Shown: positions 2,875-18,728 of the stretch, piece by piece
Layout of the letters: each line of letters opens with the position of its first letter
Numbering within the stretch: the stretch's first letter is position 1
Source of the DNA: Mycobacterium phage prophiGD12-2
Strand: one strand, 5' to 3'
DNA: 54,460 nt
Sequence record: MW584207.1
The notes under the pieces: generated by a model
Databases searched by the model: none
What the model was told of the DNA's origin: nothing
The model's input: only the letters and a program-made list of their open reading frames with translations
Made by a program: the position numbers and the translations under genes

Positions 2875-3374
2875 GGGCGTTGCGGGTCTTCAACACGGTC
2901 AGCGAGCCAGTCGCGCTCAGCCGGGGTTAGGGTCTGGCGTCGCACCCGGACGGTGTGAACGTCGGTCCAAAGCTCTTCGGCCAGTTCGTAATCATCGTTG
3001 GTCCATTGCAGCCCACGCAGCAGAGCGGGTAGCGGAATGAGTCGGCGTGCCGCCAGCACGTCCACATAGTGCTCTTCACGGGCGCGGTGGATGACAGGCG
3101 CAATGCCCCGGTCAACGTGGATCAATTCATGCGTCAAGGTCGAGCGGCGCTCAGCCTGCGTGAGGCTCTTGCACAGCCAGATGGTGTTGCCCTTGATCAG
3201 TCCGGCCACTCCCCGGGGCAGGACGTGATCGCAGGAAACAGCGATGTGTGGATAGTGCTCGGCGAGCGTTCGCCATGGATGCCAATGGTTCGTGATCATG
3301 GTGCGAGACGCTAGAACAGGCCACCGACAAATACGGCGCTGACCAGGAATTACAGGGGCGTAACTAAGCGCCAT
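2871..3374 (-). CDS. ImmA/IrrE-family Zn metallopeptidase (putative anti-repressor protease)
   Basis: HELIH HEXXH motif. Located downstream of the XRE repressor in the same operon. An alternative ATG start lies at 3299. Confidence 0.65.
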   Translation of the reverse strand: MALSYAPVIPGQRRICRWPVLASRTMITNHWHPWRTLAEHYPHIAVSCDHVLPRGVAGLIKGNTIWLCKSLTQAERRSTLTHELIHVDRGIAPVIHRAREEHYVDVLAARRLIPLPALLRGLQWTNDDYELAEELWTDVHTVRVRRQTLTPAERDWLADRVEDPQRP

Positions 3375-3440
3375 GCTCGACTACGCAAGGGTTGACAAGG
3401 GCATGTCCAGCCTGAACGGCTGTTGCTAGCCCCTGGCCGG

Positions 3441-4655
3441 TCATTGGTCTGCAAGTTCGGCGATGCGCACGCCGTATCCACCGTGCCGGGTGTCGGCGAC
3501 CGTGTAGCCAGCATTGCGGACTGCGTTGTCGACGTTCTCCTTGGCCTCCCCAAGCCGCAGCAGTTCTTCGCGAGCGAGCCTTTCCGCTTCCTTGCGTGTG
3601 GGCGCGACCATTCGGCCGAAGTTGCTGTCAGTACGTGGGTCGTAGAACTCGACCTCGAATCCCCCCGGCTCGCGCTTGAGCGACTGCGAGGCCGACTTCA
3701 CCTTGCGGATGCGGACGCCATACCCACTGCCGCTGGTGTCCGCTGTGTGCCGACCCGCGTCTTTGATGGCGGCGTCGACCATCCGGGGCTTTTCACCTTG
3801 GGCAATCAGAAATTCACGCGCATACGCTTCTGCCTCAGCGCGAGAGGTAAATTCGCGTCTGGTCCTGTCCCCTGAGCTTAAGTCCTGGAGGGACAGAACA
3901 TACAGTCCGTCACTGTCATCGTCGTTGCGTTCGCGGTCGGATTGTTTCTCGCGACGCGAGGCCGCTACGCCGAGATCTTCGAGATCGGGCGGCGGTCCGG
4001 CCGGACGGCGGCGGGCTATGGAGGTGACGTTGCCGGAACGGGTGGATGGCAGTTTCAGGGCTTCTGGATCCATTGCCCGTGCAAGTAGCGGCGTGAATAG
4101 TTCCAGGACCTTATCGCTGGTTGCCGGGTCTGCAGCCGCGATGGTCTTCATAATCTGCTGACCGAAGAAGATTCGCGCGTTTCGTTCCTCAGCCCTGGAT
4201 TCTGCTAAGGCTTGCTCAAGTTCAACGGGGGCAGGGAACCTGGAGTTTGCATCCGCGACCCCCTGAAAGTATCCGATTTGGCCCTCCATGAGGGTTTCCA
4301 GCTTGTCAATCTTCTCCATCTTGTCTAGAAGAGATGAAAGTGTTTGCGCCACAAGCTCAATGGGGACACCCGGATTGAGCATCGGGTGCTCCCGTTCGAG
4401 GTCCTCCCAGAGCGTGGGGGCGCCCCCGTCTAGCACGTCGTCTATCGACCCGGGCGCCCACTTGATGGCCTGTTCGATGGCGTCCTTGTTGCGTGACAAA
4501 AGATTAGAGCGCTTCCCGGTCTCTATGTCACTGATCAGGCGTAAGGAGACGCCAGCCGCCTCGGCAAGCTCGGCCGCAGTATGCAGCTGCACCTCAGGGT
4601 GCTTACGGCGCGCACGGATCAGGGAACCTAACCGTTTCTCATTGTCATCAGTCAT
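3441..4655 (-). CDS. XRE-family HTH repressor (putative prophage immunity repressor), 404 aa, with C-terminal tandem repeat domain
   Basis: N-terminal HTH AAELAEAAGVSLRLISDIETGKR. SD GAGGAGG lies 6 nt upstream of ATG 4655. C-terminal duplicated repeat of about 50 aa ends in ADT..G.YGVRI. The longest ORF runs to 4745. Confidence 0.7.
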   Translation of the reverse strand: MTDDNEKRLGSLIRARRKHPEVQLHTAAELAEAAGVSLRLISDIETGKRSNLLSRNKDAIEQAIKWAPGSIDDVLDGGAPTLWEDLEREHPMLNPGVPIELVAQTLSSLLDKMEKIDKLETLMEGQIGYFQGVADANSRFPAPVELEQALAESRAEERNARIFFGQQIMKTIAAADPATSDKVLELFTPLLARAMDPEALKLPSTRSGNVTSIARRRPAGPPPDLEDLGVAASRREKQSDRERNDDDSDGLYVLSLQDLSSGDRTRREFTSRAEAEAYAREFLIAQGEKPRMVDAAIKDAGRHTADTSGSGYGVRIRKVKSASQSLKREPGGFEVEFYDPRTDSNFGRMVAPTRKEAERLAREELLRLGEAKENVDNAVRNAGYTVADTRHGGYGVRIAELADQ

Positions 4656-4708
4656 CGACAGCACCTCCTCACGTATCGGAAAACATTTTCGCATAATCCG
4701 ACGCATCG

Positions 4709-4729
4709 TTGCGCACTCCACGTGCGCAA
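4709..4729. promoter_or_regulatory. Palindromic candidate operator TTGCGCAC-TCCAC-GTGCGCAA in the divergent switch region
   Basis: Perfect 8-bp inverted repeat arms with a 5-bp spacer, between the repressor and cro-like starts. Confidence 0.5.
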
Positions 4730-4762
4730 ACGTCAGAATATGCATTTCTTACGCGTTTCTGC

Positions 4763-4791
4763 TTGACCGTTGCGTGTTTGTTGCATATTGT
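4763..4791 (+). promoter_or_regulatory. Candidate sigma-A promoter for the cro-like gene (TTGACC, 17-bp spacer, TATTGT), predicting a leaderless mRNA
   Basis: The -10 element ends 7 nt before ATG 4799. No SD is present. Confidence 0.4.
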
Positions 4792-4798
4792 TTCCCGC

Positions 4799-5035
4799 AT
4801 GGTGACCGACGACCCCGAGCGGATAGGGGCAACAATCAAGGCTCTGCGCGACGCCAACAGGTGGAAGCAGGTTGACCTGGCCGCAGCGGTAGACAGAAGT
4901 CGTTCGCATTTGTCCAACATCGAGTCCGGACGAAAGCACTGCACCCTCGAACTGGCACGTGACATAGCCAAGGCGCTCCGAGTTCCCCTCGCCGCGATCA
5001 CCACGGCCTATGGCGTCGAGGAGATCGGCCCATGA
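4799..5035 (+). CDS. Cro-like XRE-family HTH regulator
   Basis: IKALRDANRWKQVDLAAAVDRSRSHLSNIESGRK HTH. Divergent from the repressor. 78 aa from ATG 4799. Confidence 0.65.
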   Translation: MVTDDPERIGATIKALRDANRWKQVDLAAAVDRSRSHLSNIESGRKHCTLELARDIAKALRVPLAAITTAYGVEEIGP

Positions 5036-11835: not shown

Positions 11836-11935
11836 GCCCGTCCCCACCATCCCCGTCAAGTAAGGCGGCGGCTGGCGGCGGGTGTCCCCTTGCCCCGCCG
11901 CCAGCCGTCCAGAAACCACCAGAGAGGCAACCGCA

Positions 11936-13132
11936 GTGAATCGCATCCCCGGCCACAACCTGTTGAGCTTCGCCAGCCAGATCGATGACAACACCATCGA
12001 GCAGGCCAAGGAAACGGCATCCATGCCGTTCATCCACCCGCACGTTGCACTGATGCCGGACGCGCACAGCGGCAAGGGCTCGGCGGTCGGCACCGTCATC
12101 CCCACAGTCGGCGCTGTCATCCCGGCGGCGGTCGGTGTAGACATCGGGTGCGGCATGATCGCGGTGCGCACCGCCTACGTCGGTGCCCATATCGACGGCC
12201 GGGACTTGTCGAAGCTGCGCGCCTCGGTGGAGTCGGCCATCCCGCTATCCCCAGGCAACTACAACCGGAGCCTGGACCGGTTCGACTTCACTGCCGAGAA
12301 GATCGCCTCTCTTGAGCGCATGGCCAAGTACGCCGTTGATCTGTCGCACTCGCCGAAGTGGCGCGAGCAGCTGGGCAGCCTCGGCGGCGGCAACCATTTC
12401 ATCGAACTGTGCGTCGACAACTACGAGCGGGTGTGGCTATTCCTGCATTCCGGTTCGCGCGGTGTCGGCAACAAGATCGCCCAGAAGCACATTCGTGTTG
12501 CGCAGGACTTGTGCCGCCGCTACTGGATTGATCTGCCGAACCGTGACCTCGCCTACCTTGCCGAGGACACCGACGAATTCAACTCGTACATCAAGGAATT
12601 GGCGTGGGCGCAGCGTTTCGCCTACCTAAATCGTGCCGAAATGCTGGACCGTTTCCTGCGGGCATTCGCGCACTGGATGGGCGCCGACCCGACCAATGCC
12701 GACGAGGTGGCCAGTATCGAGGTCGAGCGCATCAACTGCCACCACAACTACACCGCACGGCAGAAGATCGGGAACGTCGATGTGTGGCTGACCCGCAAGG
12801 GCGCTATCGACGCCAATGAGGGTGTTATGGGCGTCATCCCCGGCTCGATGGGCACCCGCTCGTATGTGGTGCGCGGCAAGGGCAACCCGGCAGGCCTGTA
12901 TTCGGCCCCGCATGGCGCCGGACGCCGCTTCTCGCGCACCAAGGCCCGCGAACTGTTCACCGCCGACGACTTGGCCAAGGCCATGGCCGGTATCGAGTAC
13001 CGCCACGGTGAGGCGTGGATCGATGAGATTCCGCAGGCATACAAGGACATTGACGTTGTGATGGATGACGCCGCCGAGCTGGTTGAGGTCGTCGCCGAGC
13101 TGCGCCAGGTCATGAACGTGAAGGGACAGTGA
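11936..13132 (+). CDS. rtcB: RtcB-family RNA ligase
   Basis: Hallmark MPDAHSGKGSAVG (RtcB MPDxHxGxG). GTG 11936 with SD GAGAGG 8 nt upstream. The N terminus aligns with E. coli RtcB. Confidence 0.75.
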   Translation: MNRIPGHNLLSFASQIDDNTIEQAKETASMPFIHPHVALMPDAHSGKGSAVGTVIPTVGAVIPAAVGVDIGCGMIAVRTAYVGAHIDGRDLSKLRASVESAIPLSPGNYNRSLDRFDFTAEKIASLERMAKYAVDLSHSPKWREQLGSLGGGNHFIELCVDNYERVWLFLHSGSRGVGNKIAQKHIRVAQDLCRRYWIDLPNRDLAYLAEDTDEFNSYIKELAWAQRFAYLNRAEMLDRFLRAFAHWMGADPTNADEVASIEVERINCHHNYTARQKIGNVDVWLTRKGAIDANEGVMGVIPGSMGTRSYVVRGKGNPAGLYSAPHGAGRRFSRTKARELFTADDLAKAMAGIEYRHGEAWIDEIPQAYKDIDVVMDDAAELVEVVAELRQVMNVKGQ

Positions 13133-13134
13133 CC

Positions 13135-13407
13135 ATGGCGCAGCACGAGATGCGCGACCCGTCCGAGAATCGGTGCGTCGCCCGCAAGATAGATGGCGCC
13201 TTCTACCGGGTGTCGTGGAACGGCTCACCCGGCGGTGATGTGATCCTCCCCGAGGGCGCGTTGGGTGTCGTGCGGTCGCCTGTGTCCCACCACAACGACC
13301 GCGTGGCCACCATCGACCGCCCCGTGGTGCGCGTCACGCCACTGGGCCGTGCGTGGCGTATCGGCTACAACATCGACGGCAGGTTTCACGTCGAGGCCAT
13401 CGCATGA
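13135..13407 (+). CDS. Hypothetical protein
   Basis: SD AAGGGA 8 nt upstream of ATG 13135. Confidence 0.45.
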   Translation: MAQHEMRDPSENRCVARKIDGAFYRVSWNGSPGGDVILPEGALGVVRSPVSHHNDRVATIDRPVVRVTPLGRAWRIGYNIDGRFHVEAIA

Positions 13408-14108
13408 GGCTTTTCAGCACATGCCGCTCATGCGGTGAGGCCATGTTGGTCACCAGCATTGACGACACGGTGCATCCGACATGCGATCCGAAGCCGACCG
13501 CCGTCGACATTCAGTGCGCCGCGTTCCTGGCCGCTGTGCAGGCCGGTGACGACGCTCGCGCCGACGAGCTGGCCGCGACCATCGACGCCGCCGAACGGCC
13601 CACCCTGCGCGGCTCAGCCCTGTACTACAGCCAGTCCCTCGGCTGGCCGGTGTTCCCGCTCAAGGCCGGGAGCAAGGAACCGGCCACGCTCAAGGGATTC
13701 AAGGACGCCACCACGAACCGGCGCCGCATCGAAACCTGGTGGAACGGCAACCCCAACTACAACATTGGGCTACCCACGGGGCACGCATTCGATGTCATCG
13801 ATGTCGACCCCGCTCACGGTGGCTGGCAATCGCTTGCGCAGCTAGACGAAAGCGATGTGCTGCCCGACATCCACGGACGCGTGGCCACGGCGGGCGGTGA
13901 CGACCGGCTATGCGGTGTGCACTTATACATCGCGCCGACCGGCGACAAGAACGGCACCAACCTCATGCCTGGAATCGATTATCGAGGATTCGGTGGATAC
14001 GTAGTGGGTGCACCCTCACGGCTTCCGGGTGGGCGCAGCTGGTCATGGTCATCGCCACCTTCACCACGCGTTAGACGCGGCGCAATGCACCAGGAACTAG
14101 CGGGATGA
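13404..14108 (+). CDS. Primase-polymerase (Prim-Pol, bifunctional primase N-terminal domain)
   Basis: YYSQSLGWPVFPL..GSKEP...GFKDATT...I..WW...NIGLPTG...DVIDVD...DYRGFGGYVVGAPS. Confidence 0.65.
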   Translation: MRLFSTCRSCGEAMLVTSIDDTVHPTCDPKPTAVDIQCAAFLAAVQAGDDARADELAATIDAAERPTLRGSALYYSQSLGWPVFPLKAGSKEPATLKGFKDATTNRRRIETWWNGNPNYNIGLPTGHAFDVIDVDPAHGGWQSLAQLDESDVLPDIHGRVATAGGDDRLCGVHLYIAPTGDKNGTNLMPGIDYRGFGGYVVGAPSRLPGGRSWSWSSPPSPRVRRGAMHQELAG

Positions 14109-14331: not shown

Positions 14332-16023
14332 GTGACAGGGGAAGAGCCAGAGTCGTTTAGCGCGAGGCTCGTTCGCGCCGGAATTGTGCAATCCAAGCCG
14401 GAGCGCCGCCCGGTGCCCCGCACTGCGTCCACAGCCCGCGACACCGCGCCCTACTACCGGGCGGCTCTTGAGAAGGAGATGGTGGAGATGGCCTCCACTG
14501 GGGAAGGCAGGCGCAACGACCAGCTGAACATTTCGGCGTTCAACCTCGGCCAGCTCGTGCCACACGGGCTTGACGAACTCGAGGTAATCGACTCGTTGAC
14601 GGCGGCGGCGCGGTCGACGGCGGGCACACCGATGACGGACCGCGAGATTGAGCGCACCATCCGCAGCGGCTTGGAGTCCGGTAAGCAGCAGCCCCGGTAC
14701 GCCGAGAACGCCAGCTATGCGATGACGGCGGCGGCGCCGATCGACGTGCCGCCTCCGACTGAACCACCGCGGATTGACGTACGCGACTATGAGGGCGACT
14801 TCTGGCAGTCACGCACGTCGCTGAGCACGGTGTATACCGCTGCCCTTGCCGGCATGTGTTCACCGTGGGCGGTGCTGGCCTGCTGTGCGGCACGGGCTCT
14901 GGCGCTGGTCGATCCGCACATCAAGCTGCCCGCAATCATCGGTTCCCGTGGCGGCTCGCTGAACTGGTTCGCGATGCTGGCCGCTGAATCCGGCGGCGGC
15001 AAGTCGACGGCGATGGAAATCGCCGAAGAGCTGATACCGATGGCTATCAAGACGCTGAACTTGGGCAGCGGCGAAGGCCTTATCGAGGCCTTCGGCGAGC
15101 GCAACGACGACGGCACGGTCAAGGACCCGGTGGCGGGTCACCGCTCGATTCTGTTCTCTGTCGATGAGATTGACTCGTATTCGGCGGTGGCCGGGCGCAG
15201 CGGTTCGACAGTGATGCCAATCCTGCGGTCGGCGTTCACGGGCGGCTCGCTGGGCTTCGCGTACCGGAAAGGCAATCGGCTGCCGGTGCTTCCGGCGCAC
15301 TCGTATCGGATGACGCTGGTGTGCGCCGCCCAGCCGGGCCGGACGCGCGCCATGTTCGCCGACGCCGATGGCGGGACACCGCAGCGGTTTATGTGGTTCC
15401 CGGCGACCGATCCTCGGATCGCGGCGGTGCGGCCCACATTCAACGGCGCCCTGTATCTGCCTCCGGTGACCGATTGGCAGTATCCGGCCACCCTGCGGGT
15501 GCCATCGGAGTGCGAGGGCCTGATTGTGACCACTCGGGCCTCCCAGGCGCGCGGTGAGACAGCGGCACTCAATTCGCATGCCCTATTCGCCCGCGAGAAG
15601 TTCGCCTACGCCTTGGCCATCCTGGACGGCCGGTCGGCGATGGATTCGGAGGACTGGCGCCTGTCCGGGGTCGCGGCGGCAGTGTCCGACGCGGTGCGCC
15701 AATGGGTGCTCGATCAGCTGGCGGCTTCCGAAGCCGAAGAGGCGCGCCAGAAAGGGCGCCTGCAAGGTGTGGCCAAGTCGGCGGCTGACGCCGAGAGGAC
15801 GTTGCAAGACGCCGAGTCGCTGGCACGGGCGGAAGCCTTCGTCCGCGAGAAACTGGCCGACGCCGGTATGCGCGGTATGACGTTGCGCGAACTTCAACGG
15901 GCCGGTGGCAGAGCGGTACGCCACCTGTGCGCGGTCACCTTGACCCGCTTGCAGACCGAGGGTGCTGTCGCTCAAGTCATCGACGGTAGGTCAACGCGCT
16001 GGACCTGGGCCGGTGAGCCGTGA
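14332..16023 (+). CDS. Primase C-terminal (PriCT-like) domain plus P-loop NTPase (SF3/D5-like helicase)
   Basis: GEGRRNDQLNISAFNLGQL PriCT-like motif. Walker A AESGGGKST. Walker B ILFSVDEID. Confidence 0.6.
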   Translation: MTGEEPESFSARLVRAGIVQSKPERRPVPRTASTARDTAPYYRAALEKEMVEMASTGEGRRNDQLNISAFNLGQLVPHGLDELEVIDSLTAAARSTAGTPMTDREIERTIRSGLESGKQQPRYAENASYAMTAAAPIDVPPPTEPPRIDVRDYEGDFWQSRTSLSTVYTAALAGMCSPWAVLACCAARALALVDPHIKLPAIIGSRGGSLNWFAMLAAESGGGKSTAMEIAEELIPMAIKTLNLGSGEGLIEAFGERNDDGTVKDPVAGHRSILFSVDEIDSYSAVAGRSGSTVMPILRSAFTGGSLGFAYRKGNRLPVLPAHSYRMTLVCAAQPGRTRAMFADADGGTPQRFMWFPATDPRIAAVRPTFNGALYLPPVTDWQYPATLRVPSECEGLIVTTRASQARGETAALNSHALFAREKFAYALAILDGRSAMDSEDWRLSGVAAAVSDAVRQWVLDQLAASEAEEARQKGRLQGVAKSAADAERTLQDAESLARAEAFVREKLADAGMRGMTLRELQRAGGRAVRHLCAVTLTRLQTEGAVAQVIDGRSTRWTWAGEP

Positions 16024-16040
16024 GAACCGTTCTAGCAAAT

Positions 16041-16260
16041 GTGTCGGCCACTGTCGGCTGGCCGACACACGGGTCTAAGTGTCGGCTAGCCGGTGGCCGA
16101 CACTGGCCGACACTCAGAAATGCAAAAACATGCCTTTACCAGTACCTATATATACATATGCATATGAGACGGATACACGTACGAGGGCCGACGCCCCAGG
16201 TCGCGAAGCGTCGGCCACAAAACAACTGTCGGCTGGCCGACACTGGCCGACACTTCGGCA
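16041..16260. repeat. Iteron-like repeats (TGTCGGCTGGCCGACAC and GGCCGACACTGGCCGACACT) flanking an AT-rich patch. Candidate origin of replication.
   Basis: CTGTCGGCTGGCCGACAC occurs at 16051-16068 and 16226-16243. TGGCCGACACTGGCCGACACT occurs at 16094-16114 and 16233-16253. The AT-rich patch is 16141-16180. Confidence 0.5.
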
Positions 16261-16302
16261 CCCCCGGCTAATCAGTTAACAACCACCATCGAAGGGATTG
16301 AC

Positions 16303-16746
16303 ATGACCACCCCGACCAAGAGGTCTCGCCGGAACCACCGCAGCGCCAAGAAAGCGGGCACCCGTTTTGAGCGCAGTGTGGCCGACTATCTGGCCGCGAC
16401 ACTGGACGACCGCATTGACCGGCGAGTGAAGGCCGGAAACAAGGACTGCGGCGACATCGGTGGTGTGCGCCGCTCCCCCTGTGGCTCGCGCATCGTCATC
16501 GAATGCAAAGACACATCCAAGATCGCACTGGCGCAGTGGGTGCGCGAAGCGGCCACAGAAGCGGCCAATGATGGAGCTCTGATGGGCGCTGTCGTCCACA
16601 AGCGAGTAGGTGTGGGTGATCCTGCCCAACAGTGGGTGACGATGACCCTGGCCGATCTGGTGACGATCCTAAGCGGCCAGCGCCCGAGCCCCCATGTGGC
16701 TCGCACCGAGGACAAGGCCCCGGCAGCCGCCGAGGTGTCAGCATGA
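16303..16746 (+). CDS. PD-(D/E)xK nuclease (possible Holliday junction resolvase)
   Basis: GTRFERSVADYL...DIGGV...IVIECKD motif. SD GAAGGGA upstream. Confidence 0.45.
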   Translation: MTTPTKRSRRNHRSAKKAGTRFERSVADYLAATLDDRIDRRVKAGNKDCGDIGGVRRSPCGSRIVIECKDTSKIALAQWVREAATEAANDGALMGAVVHKRVGVGDPAQQWVTMTLADLVTILSGQRPSPHVARTEDKAPAAAEVSA

Positions 16747-17240: not shown

Positions 17241-17650
17241 AGGTCTACATCGTCACCACCGGCAGCTATTCGGACTACCAGATTCAACGGGTGCTCACCG
17301 ACAAGGAACGGGCCGAAAAACTTGCCGCCGCATGGAATAGCACCGCCTATTGCGGCAGTGATGCCCAGGTCACCGAGTGGGAGACAGACGAGCAGACAGA
17401 CACCCTGGCACGCCAGTGGGTGCAGGGCGAGAGCGAACTCAACTGCTACGAATGGACTCCCGTTGGCGGCTTTGATCAGGTCTACGACATCGACGGCTGG
17501 GCATATAAAGGCGCCCACCCCGGCAAGGCCACCGTGGTCGAAGCCACCGACCGATTCGTCAAGGTGATCGGAACCGACGAAATGGCCGTCCGGAAAACCA
17601 TCTACGACACCGTGACACAGATCCGAGCACGAGCCGAAGGGATTGCATGA
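17237..17650 (+). CDS. Hypothetical protein
   Basis: ATGA overlap. Confidence 0.45.
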   Translation: MKVYIVTTGSYSDYQIQRVLTDKERAEKLAAAWNSTAYCGSDAQVTEWETDEQTDTLARQWVQGESELNCYEWTPVGGFDQVYDIDGWAYKGAHPGKATVVEATDRFVKVIGTDEMAVRKTIYDTVTQIRARAEGIA

Positions 17651-17651
17651 C

Positions 17652-18326
17652 ATGACCACCATCGCCAAGGGCAGCACCGTCGAGCTGTGCGCGCACCCGG
17701 ATTGCAAGCGCGACAACGGCAAGCCAGCACACACGCCGGACGGCATGTGCCAAAGCTGCCAGCGCCGCGTCGCCACCGCACTGGAGCGCGTTGTGCTCGA
17801 TTGGGTTCAGCTGCACCAGCTCCCCGCACCCAACAAGGGCGACAAGATGCGCGGCGCCAAGGTCAAGGACTACGGCCACCCAGCTGAATGGGCCTCGGAC
17901 ATGCTCACGAAGATCGCCATATGCCTACGGGCAGCACATGACAACCTCGCAAGCACGCTAGCCGAGCAAGGGCACGAGGCCCCTGGCGAGGACTACCCCA
18001 GTGAGCGCGCCGCCGTCATCGCCGCACACACCTACCTGTCGGTGCGCATCGACAAGCTGTGCCGCCAGGAATGGGCGCCGGACATCATCGCCGAATGGCA
18101 TGGGCTGCACTCGAAAGTACGCAGCCAGCTCGGCCTGACGCGGCCACGTATCGCCCTGCCAACACCGTGCCCCGACTGCGACATGCGGACCCTGACGCGC
18201 TACATCGACGTGCAGCGCGACTGGATTGAGTGCGGCAACTGCCAGACGCAGATCCGCAGCGAGCACTACCCGCTATGGACGCGGATGGTGCTGGATGAGA
18301 TCGTAACCCCAGCTCAGAAGGTGTAG
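17652..18326 (+). CDS. Hypothetical Cys-rich protein (zinc-finger-like)
   Basis: CAHPDCK...CQSCQRR...CPDCD...CGNCQ. Confidence 0.45.
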   Translation: MTTIAKGSTVELCAHPDCKRDNGKPAHTPDGMCQSCQRRVATALERVVLDWVQLHQLPAPNKGDKMRGAKVKDYGHPAEWASDMLTKIAICLRAAHDNLASTLAEQGHEAPGEDYPSERAAVIAAHTYLSVRIDKLCRQEWAPDIIAEWHGLHSKVRSQLGLTRPRIALPTPCPDCDMRTLTRYIDVQRDWIECGNCQTQIRSEHYPLWTRMVLDEIVTPAQKV

Positions 18327-18345
18327 TAATACGATTCTTGCACTT

Positions 18346-18362
18346 CTAATATTTTATATTAG
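18346..18362. promoter_or_regulatory. AT-rich perfect palindrome CTAATAT-TTT-ATATTAG upstream of the low-GC gene
   Basis: Sits in a 45-bp AT-rich island (18327-18371), against a 64% GC background. Confidence 0.45.
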
Positions 18363-18371
18363 GATCGTGAA

Positions 18372-18728
18372 ATGGCTACTATACAAACAGTTGTTCCCGA
18401 TGAATTCGCTGCCGTCTTCGAAGAAGCCGCCTCGGCGCGAGGACTGACCGTCTCCTCCTATGCCCGCCAGGTGCTCATGGGCGCAGTCAAGACTGACGGG
18501 ACGTTCTTTGGCGTCGTCATGTGCCGCGCCAATTCCGAAGTCGATTCAAAACGATGGTTCGCCAAGGCAATGCCATACGCACACGCCGAAGTGGTTGACG
18601 GAGCATTGATCTTCCGCAATCCAGGCGGAAGAGCGGAAGTTGTTATTGCACCCGGACGATGGCGCGAATGCAGCAGGCGACTCGATGTTGATCGTGACGT
18701 CTTCGATGCCTCCGTCGACTTGGAGTGA
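18372..18728 (+). CDS. Ribbon-helix-helix-like protein (CopG/antitoxin-like N terminus) with an unknown C-terminal domain. Low-GC moron.
   Basis: N-terminal EFAAVFEEAASARGLTVSSYARQVLMGAV RHH pattern. About 56% GC. SD AGGA 7 nt upstream. Confidence 0.5.
   Translation: MATIQTVVPDEFAAVFEEAASARGLTVSSYARQVLMGAVKTDGTFFGVVMCRANSEVDSKRWFAKAMPYAHAEVVDGALIFRNPGGRAEVVIAPGRWRECSRRLDVDRDVFDASVDLE

Follow-up and report, generated by a model that had tools for sequence, protein, structure and literature searches.

The window analysed here is the whole 54,460-nucleotide stretch of Mycobacterium phage prophiGD12-2 (sequence record MW584207.1), and the element in question is a candidate replication origin in the 279-bp gap at 16024-16302. 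The gap is non-coding and lies between two plus-strand genes, one for a predicted MCM-like helicase of the DUF3987 family and one for a predicted nuclease. The genes and features of the locus are the following.

13353-14108, plus strand: primase-polymerase (PrimPol/AEP) gene, Pfam PF09250 Prim-Pol with E 1.9e-31, phrog_5852 (DNA polymerase/primase); the start codon is uncertain.
14332-16023, plus strand: helicase/initiator candidate of 563 amino acids with a PriCT-like N-terminus, a DUF3987 (MCM-like, superfamily 6, SF6) P-loop core and a C-terminal winged helix.
15790-16020, plus strand: variable specificity module of the helicase, residues about 487-563, made up of the end of the stalk helix and the winged helix.
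16034-16039, plus strand: AGCAAA motif just after the helicase stop, present in nearly all relatives whatever their repeat word.
16041-16113, both orientations: left iteron array with six GGCCGACAC sites at 16041(-), 16051(-), 16060(+), 16079(-), 16095(+) and 16105(+).
16124-16174, no strand: AT-rich core, a candidate DNA-unwinding element, which includes CTATATATACATATGCATATG, kept across repeat types.
16186(+), 16208(-), 16226(-), 16235(+) and 16245(+): right array, five sites with up to two mismatches to GGCCGACAC.
16186-16216: inner pair of the right array, the variant word GGCCGACGC (+) and an inverted copy (-), a 9-bp inverted repeat with a 13-nt spacer.
16226-16253: outer right iteron array '< > >', with sites at 16226(-), 16235(+) and 16245(+), the mirror image of the left outer triplet.
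16303-16746, plus strand: downstream nuclease gene, PD-(D/E)XK-like, phrog_244 (labelled Holliday junction resolvase) with E 1.8e-31; the Pfam match to PDDEXK_15 is weak, 17 bits and below the cut-off.

The word GGCCGACAC has six exact copies in the window and all six lie inside 16041-16253. When one mismatch is allowed, 39 copies are found window-wide, nine of them in the same interval, and this total is not above chance (29 +/- 5 in shuffles); the signal is the clustering of the repeats, not their window-wide number. With up to two mismatches there are 11 sites within 213 bp, six to the left and five to the right of the AT-rich core, and both orientations are present on each side. The first site begins 18 nt past the helicase stop codon (16023 to 16041) and tandem copies are spaced by 10 bp. 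Longer strings recur as well, ACTGTCGGCTGGCCGACAC at 16050-16068 and 16225-16243 and TGGCCGACACTGGCCGACACT at 16094-16114 and 16234-16254, while TATATATACATATGCATATG is found at 16147-16166. Over their outer 27 nt the two arrays pair up as an 89% inverted repeat, which gives the whole element approximate dyad symmetry. The spacer of the inner right pair contains CCCAGG, which is kept in all types of the M. abscessus group, and this pair may consist of weaker binding sites or be an element of its own. The AGCAAA motif lies in invariant alignment columns, is found also in DS6A, BetterKatz and the loci L003, L021, L022 and L044-L047, and may be a site for a conserved factor. In BetterKatz AGCAAA forms part of the repeat itself, and GCAAAGCAAA recurs past the right array in the four distant loci L044-L047.

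The 40-mer at 16124-16163 has 30% GC, the fourth-lowest value in a window of 62.5% GC overall, and the one at 16135-16174 is the third least stable of the window, with -46.4 kcal/mol against a mean of -62.7 (sd 3.9), more than four standard deviations below the mean. Two sets of core columns, TATATATA and GCATAT, are invariant across five specificity types. No 40-mer of the window is lower in GC (22.5%) or less stable than that at 18322-18361, which lies in a short gap between the open reading frames (ORFs) 17643-18326 and 18372-18728 and may be a promoter region or another cis element. Much of this agrees with a first-pass annotation of the same DNA, which had been made from the letters alone and had proposed an origin at this place: the repeat and AT-rich strings that it quoted are present where it put them, direct and inverted copies do flank the core on both sides, and the 40-bp segment of about 30% GC is there. 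Its figure of 64% GC has to be lowered to that given above, and of the upstream 'primase/helicase gene' only the helicase half stands, the primase being encoded by the separate PrimPol gene.

The helicase carries a Walker A motif GGGKS (residues 221-225) and a Walker B motif DEID (278-281), both kept across 74 homologues, followed by a stalk helix (439-514) and the C-terminal winged helix (about 515-560). It matches Pfam PF13148 (DUF3987) with 28.8 bits against a cut-off of 27, and phrog_11515 with E 8.5e-96; PHROG families here often have the module fused to PrimPol. A search of its sequence against solved structures gave nothing significant. The AlphaFold2 (AF2) model of the whole protein, with a predicted local distance difference test (pLDDT) score of 88.6, shows an N-terminal helical domain, a P-loop core, a 76-residue helix and a terminal H-b-H-H-b-b unit, and its best fold matches in the PDB are MCM2-7 and archaeal MCM. 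This MCM-like match agrees with Kazlauskas et al., who described the DUF3987 family as MCM-like, of SF6, with a winged helix-turn-helix at the C-terminus (PMC4889955). For one PriCT-DUF3987 protein, work of 2025 demonstrated 5'-3' helicase activity and binding to its PrimPol (PMC11724360).

Modelled alone, residues 498-563 gave a pLDDT of 93.9 and the canonical winged-helix topology H-b-H-H-b-b, with a predicted recognition helix at 527-543 (RAVRHLCAVTLTRLQTE) and a beta-hairpin wing at 546-559. Among the best 50 Foldseek matches of this tail in the PDB, winged-helix DNA binders predominate overwhelmingly, including histone H1/H5, ArsR, MecI, Fur and MarR-type proteins; the best TMq is about 0.75-0.81 at ~2 Å, with E-values that are weak, as usual for a 66-residue domain.

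Relatives of the locus were compared in 15 IMG/VR prophage contigs, one genome locus, eight contigs from an exact-protein look-up and four GenBank phages; a scan of species-representative genomes gave one relative only. The arrangement of array, AT-rich core and array directly past the helicase stop is found in 16 representative loci, drawn from Mycobacterium and Gordonia phages and metagenomes, with helicases 34-99% identical (34-46% in the distant set of DS6A, BetterKatz, Tarzan and L044-L047). It is kept whatever gene follows, be it a PD-(D/E)XK nuclease, endonuclease VII, RusA or others. The words themselves are not kept: the 16 loci use 15 different ones, each essentially confined to its gap and absent or rare elsewhere in the locus. 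The repeat words are these.

Window and L017: GGCCGACAC
L008: GCCCGACAC
L019: GCCACACCT
Type B loci (prophiGD17-1): GCTGACACC
Type C loci (prophiGD05-1): GCCTCCACC
L021: TGTCCACCT
L022: TGGCCAC
L003: TTGTCCACGT
DS6A: GTCCTAC
Gordonia BetterKatz: CCAGCAAAC
Gordonia Tarzan (L025): TGTCCACG
L044: ATGTCCAACAT
L045: GTCCACAT
L046: ATGGCCAACAT
L047: TGTACACC

Site orientation was mapped in 12 representatives, and the arrangement in L044-L047 was judged by eye. Nearly all of those mapped have a right array of the form '< > >', L003 having only '> >'; left arrays contain sites in both directions, the '<' ones coming first, and read '< < >' in the group of the window. The gaps of prophiGD17-1 and prophiGD05-1 have the layout of the window, its conserved core (TATATATA...ATGCATAT) and its ribosome-binding region, with other words in the arrays. 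Small conserved ORFs in the gap were considered and rejected, as frame, strand and length vary between repeat types. GenBank places small hypothetical ORFs over the arrays, at 7015-7280 of L001 (prophiGD17-1 genes 38 and 39) and at 2727-2999 of L025 (Tarzan gp55), and these are probably spurious because no ORF is kept in frame, strand or length across repeat types.

What varies together with the word is the tail of the helicase. In 23 loci, from the M. abscessus/chelonae group and a Mycobacterium metagenome-assembled genome, tail type and repeat word are paired without exception, a result that is one of co-variation only. The helicases of the window, prophiGD17-1 and prophiGD05-1 are about 99% identical over residues 1-486 and divergent over the last 75. 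Between types B and C, DNA identity is at least 0.86 in the helicase body (mostly 0.91-0.97), falls to 0.55-0.80 in the last ~70 codons and the gap, and is 0.96-0.99 in the next gene. When 21.6-kb loci of these two types were compared, the 21-mers diagnostic of a type, shared by all its loci and missing from every locus of the other, were confined to the tail and the gap, as were the 150-bp tiles that separate the types, and in the 10 kb on each side none of the other genes changes with the repeat word. Where the word changes, all copies to the left and right of the core have changed with it; the core, AGCAAA and the ribosome-binding region stay conserved. The word of L008 differs from that of the window by one base, and all L008 copies carry the change. 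This amounts to a concerted change of dispersed sites and not to replacement of a block by unrelated DNA. The module of tail and repeats also moves independently of the helicase body: L016 has a helicase 76% identical to that of the window, yet a type C tail and a type C word, and the bodies of the window and L002 are 98-100% identical and their types differ.

The N-terminal part of the recognition helix reads RAVRHL in the window, KSLRHL in L008, ARLQPF in type B and KRLQPF in type C. Many distant types have SRDR... at the start of this helix, and their words share a GTCCAC/GGCCAC-like core. Qualitatively, such type-specific residues would fit a direct read-out of the repeat word.

The arrays are thus very probably read by the helicase tail, a binding that is predicted from these sequences and models, and the gap at 16024-16302 is probably a phage replication origin of the iteron type. 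It would most likely be used for lytic replication after induction rather than for replication of the prophage. In the mechanism that is proposed, the C-terminal winged helix of the MCM-like DUF3987 helicase would read the 9-10 bp iterons (T)GGCCGACAC, and the arrays would place helicase oligomers to the left and right of the core, probably as two rings facing each other, an arrangement to which the mirror-symmetric outer triplets would be suited if the rings are loaded in opposite directions. The core at 16124-16174 would then melt, the helicase would be loaded so as to encircle the DNA, and PrimPol, encoded two genes upstream, would prime synthesis. Binding, melting and the loading of a double ring at the arrays are steps that we infer.

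Several observations weigh against an origin read by the helicase tail. The DNA coding for the tail adjoins the repeats, and the two could be associated in part simply because one recombination block links them; that the core amid the arrays is conserved and that all copies change in concert counters this objection and does not eliminate it. Across 16 types, iteron distance is correlated with winged-helix distance (Mantel rho 0.32, p 0.002) and about as well with that of the helicase body (rho 0.33). Although significant, Mantel and partial Mantel tests could not tell winged helix and body apart as predictors over long distances, and the argument from co-variation therefore rests on the mosaic M. 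abscessus group. The scan for associated genes covered 10 kb on each side in types B and C, and the immunity region lies outside it. Cumulative GC skew has only a weak local maximum near 16-17 kb. The one DUF3987 helicase studied biochemically runs 5'-3', and that work dealt with helicase activity, not with origin binding. Finally, Corndog has a homologous fused PrimPol-DUF3987 protein with no gap and no clear arrays downstream of it (L024 2808-3265, downstream of gp22); it is the one homologue examined that is without such arrays, and its origin, if of this type, must be elsewhere.

Among other explanations, the arrays might be operators around a promoter that controls the nuclease gene downstream and the middle genes; a transcription factor or an autoregulating helicase tail would bind them, and they would have no role in initiation. 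The genes of this same-strand operon are otherwise tightly packed and a gap of this length leaves room for a promoter, winged helices are a typical fold among repressors, and the conserved segment before the start codon (CAGTTAACAAC...GAAGGGA), which ends in the nuclease ribosome-binding site GAAGGGA at 16291-16297, shows selection on expression signals. Against this, a scan of the gap for sigma-70-like promoters found none, consensus scans being weak evidence for mycobacterial promoters, and reading of the AT-rich core revealed no canonical TANNNT -10 hexamer on either strand. The nuclease gene is 96-99% identical between types B and C, yet their words differ; the downstream gene family varies among relatives and the layout stays; and neither this gene nor any other in the scanned neighbourhood follows the word. 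Eleven sites flanking an unwinding-prone core are the layout of an origin rather than of an operator. Operators without a role in initiation are therefore unlikely, and the suggestion of nuclease operators, which the first-pass annotation had kept as its alternative, is disfavoured, as the word does not track the nuclease gene, promoter elements were not found in the gap and the layout is kept when the following gene changes. Its preferred origin, by comparison, gains computational support from the conserved layout, the co-variation of word and tail, the lack of promoter signals and a layout like that of the Staphylococcus aureus pathogenicity islands (SaPI). The two roles do not exclude each other, and a dual one is possible because origin-bound initiators often also repress.

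It is less probable still that the gap is an origin read by another initiator, host DnaA or an unidentified phage protein, with the helicase tail as a passenger in the recombination block. The high-affinity DnaA box of mycobacteria (M. tuberculosis/Streptomyces) is TTGTCCACA (PMC4285127). Words resembling it occur in L003 (TTGTCCACGT), L021 (TGTCCACCT) and L025 (TGTCCACG), an exact TTGTCCACA lies in L045 at about 3375-3395, and linkage could mimic co-variation. The word of the window, GGCCGACAC, nevertheless matches the DnaA box at six of nine positions only, the words of types B, C and E do not resemble it either, and 15 words in a single host genus are more than one protein of the host can account for; for a phage protein, no further gene co-varies within the 10 kb on either side.

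Folded as single-stranded DNA, the left array gives a hairpin of -30.7 kcal/mol (z -7.5) and the right array a weaker one (z -2.9). A scan for intrinsic terminators found none on the plus strand of the gap; both terminator-like matches belong to the minus strand, one being no more than an iteron palindrome, and a scan of the region against Rfam gave chance-level matches only. It is very improbable that the conserved feature is such secondary structure, in the transcript or in single-stranded DNA (a terminator, an attenuator or a primosome-assembly-type signal), with co-variation as stem maintenance. The hairpins and the persistence of inverted arrangements while the sequence changes would speak for it, but iterons that are inverted can form hairpins or cruciforms as a matter of course, and stem maintenance leaves unexplained the tandem word at 10-bp spacing within one arm, the word shared by left and right arrays and its change together with the winged helix of the helicase.

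The genes around the candidate origin are those of a replication module. PrimPol is the replication partner of the helicase, and it is a separate gene also in L020-L022, L045 and L046. BetterKatz and Tarzan have proteins of 953 and 774 amino acids annotated as DNA primase/polymerase, and their length and annotation suggest a fusion. Two genes upstream of PrimPol, an RtcB-like RNA ligase gene (11882-13132, Pfam E 3.7e-113) belongs to the early/replication module; it is common to related prophages and is found also in M. smegmatis phages at about 75% DNA identity. The downstream nuclease is context only, outside the co-varying module. In most loci a nuclease of the junction-resolvase type follows the gap, directly or past one or two small called ORFs (L020, L047), and the following gene lies at 16303-16746 in the window, 7282-7773 in L001, 3371-3757 in L023, 3191-4198 in L026, 3398-3970 in L044 and 3472-4008 in L045. 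The families are unrelated: the window has a PD-(D/E)XK-like nuclease, prophiGD17-1, L020-L022, BetterKatz and L047 have endonuclease VII, and DS6A, L044 and L045 have RusA; the gene that follows in L019 and L046 matches no family. This looks like non-orthologous replacement at a fixed place.

The window as a whole is a Mycobacteroides abscessus prophage in prophage orientation, with a tyrosine integrase gene at 263-1585, and is co-linear with prophiGD05-1 and prophiGD17-1. A comparison of immunity in these three complete phages showed that types B and C share a homologous repressor region (88% DNA identity) and that the window has a different one. At 3355-4910 the window has unrelated sequence where prophiGD05-1 and prophiGD17-1 hold their immunity repressor, with a 434-aa ORF on the minus strand at 3441-4745.

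A wider proposal is put forward tentatively and with some reservation: DUF3987 helicases may be self-loading, origin-recognising initiators that act through their winged helix, and winged helix and iterons together may form a cassette of ~450 bp that is swapped by recombination among near-identical M. abscessus prophages and gives them private replication specificities. If this is true, there are at least six specificities in M. abscessus/chelonae prophages and 15 across the sampled actinobacteriophages, and phages residing together or superinfecting could avoid setting off the replication machinery of the other or being set off by it. A rule placing the origin right after the DUF3987 gene would then locate the lytic origins of a large share of actinobacteriophages. 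The locus is in any case a concrete and testable origin candidate with its likely reader named, and it comes with natural swaps, helicases ~99% identical with different tails and repeats. Confirmation would provide parts for phage-derived replicons and for the engineering of therapeutic M. abscessus phages, as well as a simple model, from a bacterial virus, for the targeting of an MCM-like helicase to an origin.

In the literature searched, no description of an origin was found for phages with DUF3987 helicases; work on iterons and origins in mycobacteriophages, on M. abscessus prophages and on DUF3987 yielded only plasmid-like prophage maintenance and the helicase family itself. The kind of element is classical, with iterons and an unwinding element beside the gene of an initiator of matched specificity, and this instance of it appears to be undescribed. 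An MCM-like helicase as the proposed initiator is the variant aspect of an otherwise classical layout.

The closest known system is the Rep/ori of SaPI, in which binding by the C-terminal winged helix, iterons directly past rep and the central AT-rich region are experimentally established (PMC9371898). There, 6-12 island-specific iterons of 5-6 bp form two sets with opposite orientations around the AT-rich region, and the helicase is self-loading and has no loader (PMC9371898). As in the pri-rep-ori order of SaPI, a primase is followed here by the helicase/initiator candidate and by the candidate origin directly past the helicase stop; two sets of short repeats flank an AT-rich core, here with both orientations on each side, a C-terminal winged helix is predicted, and repeat and tail are matched. 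In contrast to SaPI, the iterons are of 9-10 bp and not 5-6, and the carrier is a full temperate actinobacterial phage and not a firmicute satellite; SaPI has been characterised experimentally, whereas the present system is known from sequence and models. Rep belongs to superfamily 3, while the helicase here is DUF3987, of the MCM-like superfamily 6, and a superfamily 3 (D5/VirE-like) core as in the SaPI Rep/P4 alpha family was not recognised in it, its Pfam match being DUF3987 and its best folds MCM. By analogy, the system would work like SaPI Rep and stand outside the SaPI Rep protein family.

The alpha protein of satellite phage P4 is a fused primase and superfamily 3 helicase whose C-terminal winged-helix origin-binding domain reads repeated octamers (type I iterons), and P4 requires a second, distant site, crr. 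Like alpha, the protein described here would combine a replication function and a predicted C-terminal winged-helix origin reader in one polypeptide; unlike in P4, the primase is a separate gene and all exact copies of the word are in one place. In the lambdoid phages, ori-lambda has iterons beside an AT-rich segment, and the DNA-binding domain of O and the iterons change together between phages, which gives types of replication specificity. The lambda origin lies inside the O gene, and O is not a helicase and recruits host DnaB via the P protein, whereas here the candidate origin is intergenic and the candidate initiator is itself a helicase. Origins of extrachromosomal mycobacterial prophages are RepA-dependent or RNA-based and serve plasmid-like maintenance, with no repeat arrays identified (PMC7157519). 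They too are replication determinants of mycobacteriophages; unlike them, the element described here belongs to an integrase-carrying phage and lies in the lytic replication module.

The MCM helicases of archaea and eukaryotes are loaded by ORC/Cdc6, and their winged helix is not an origin reader. The DUF3987 helicase studied moves 5'-3', opposite to MCM. The present protein resembles MCM in the fold of its AAA+ core and in having a C-terminal winged-helix domain (PMC4889955), and the mirror-symmetric sites of the two arrays would suit two rings placed head to head, in an MCM-like manner.
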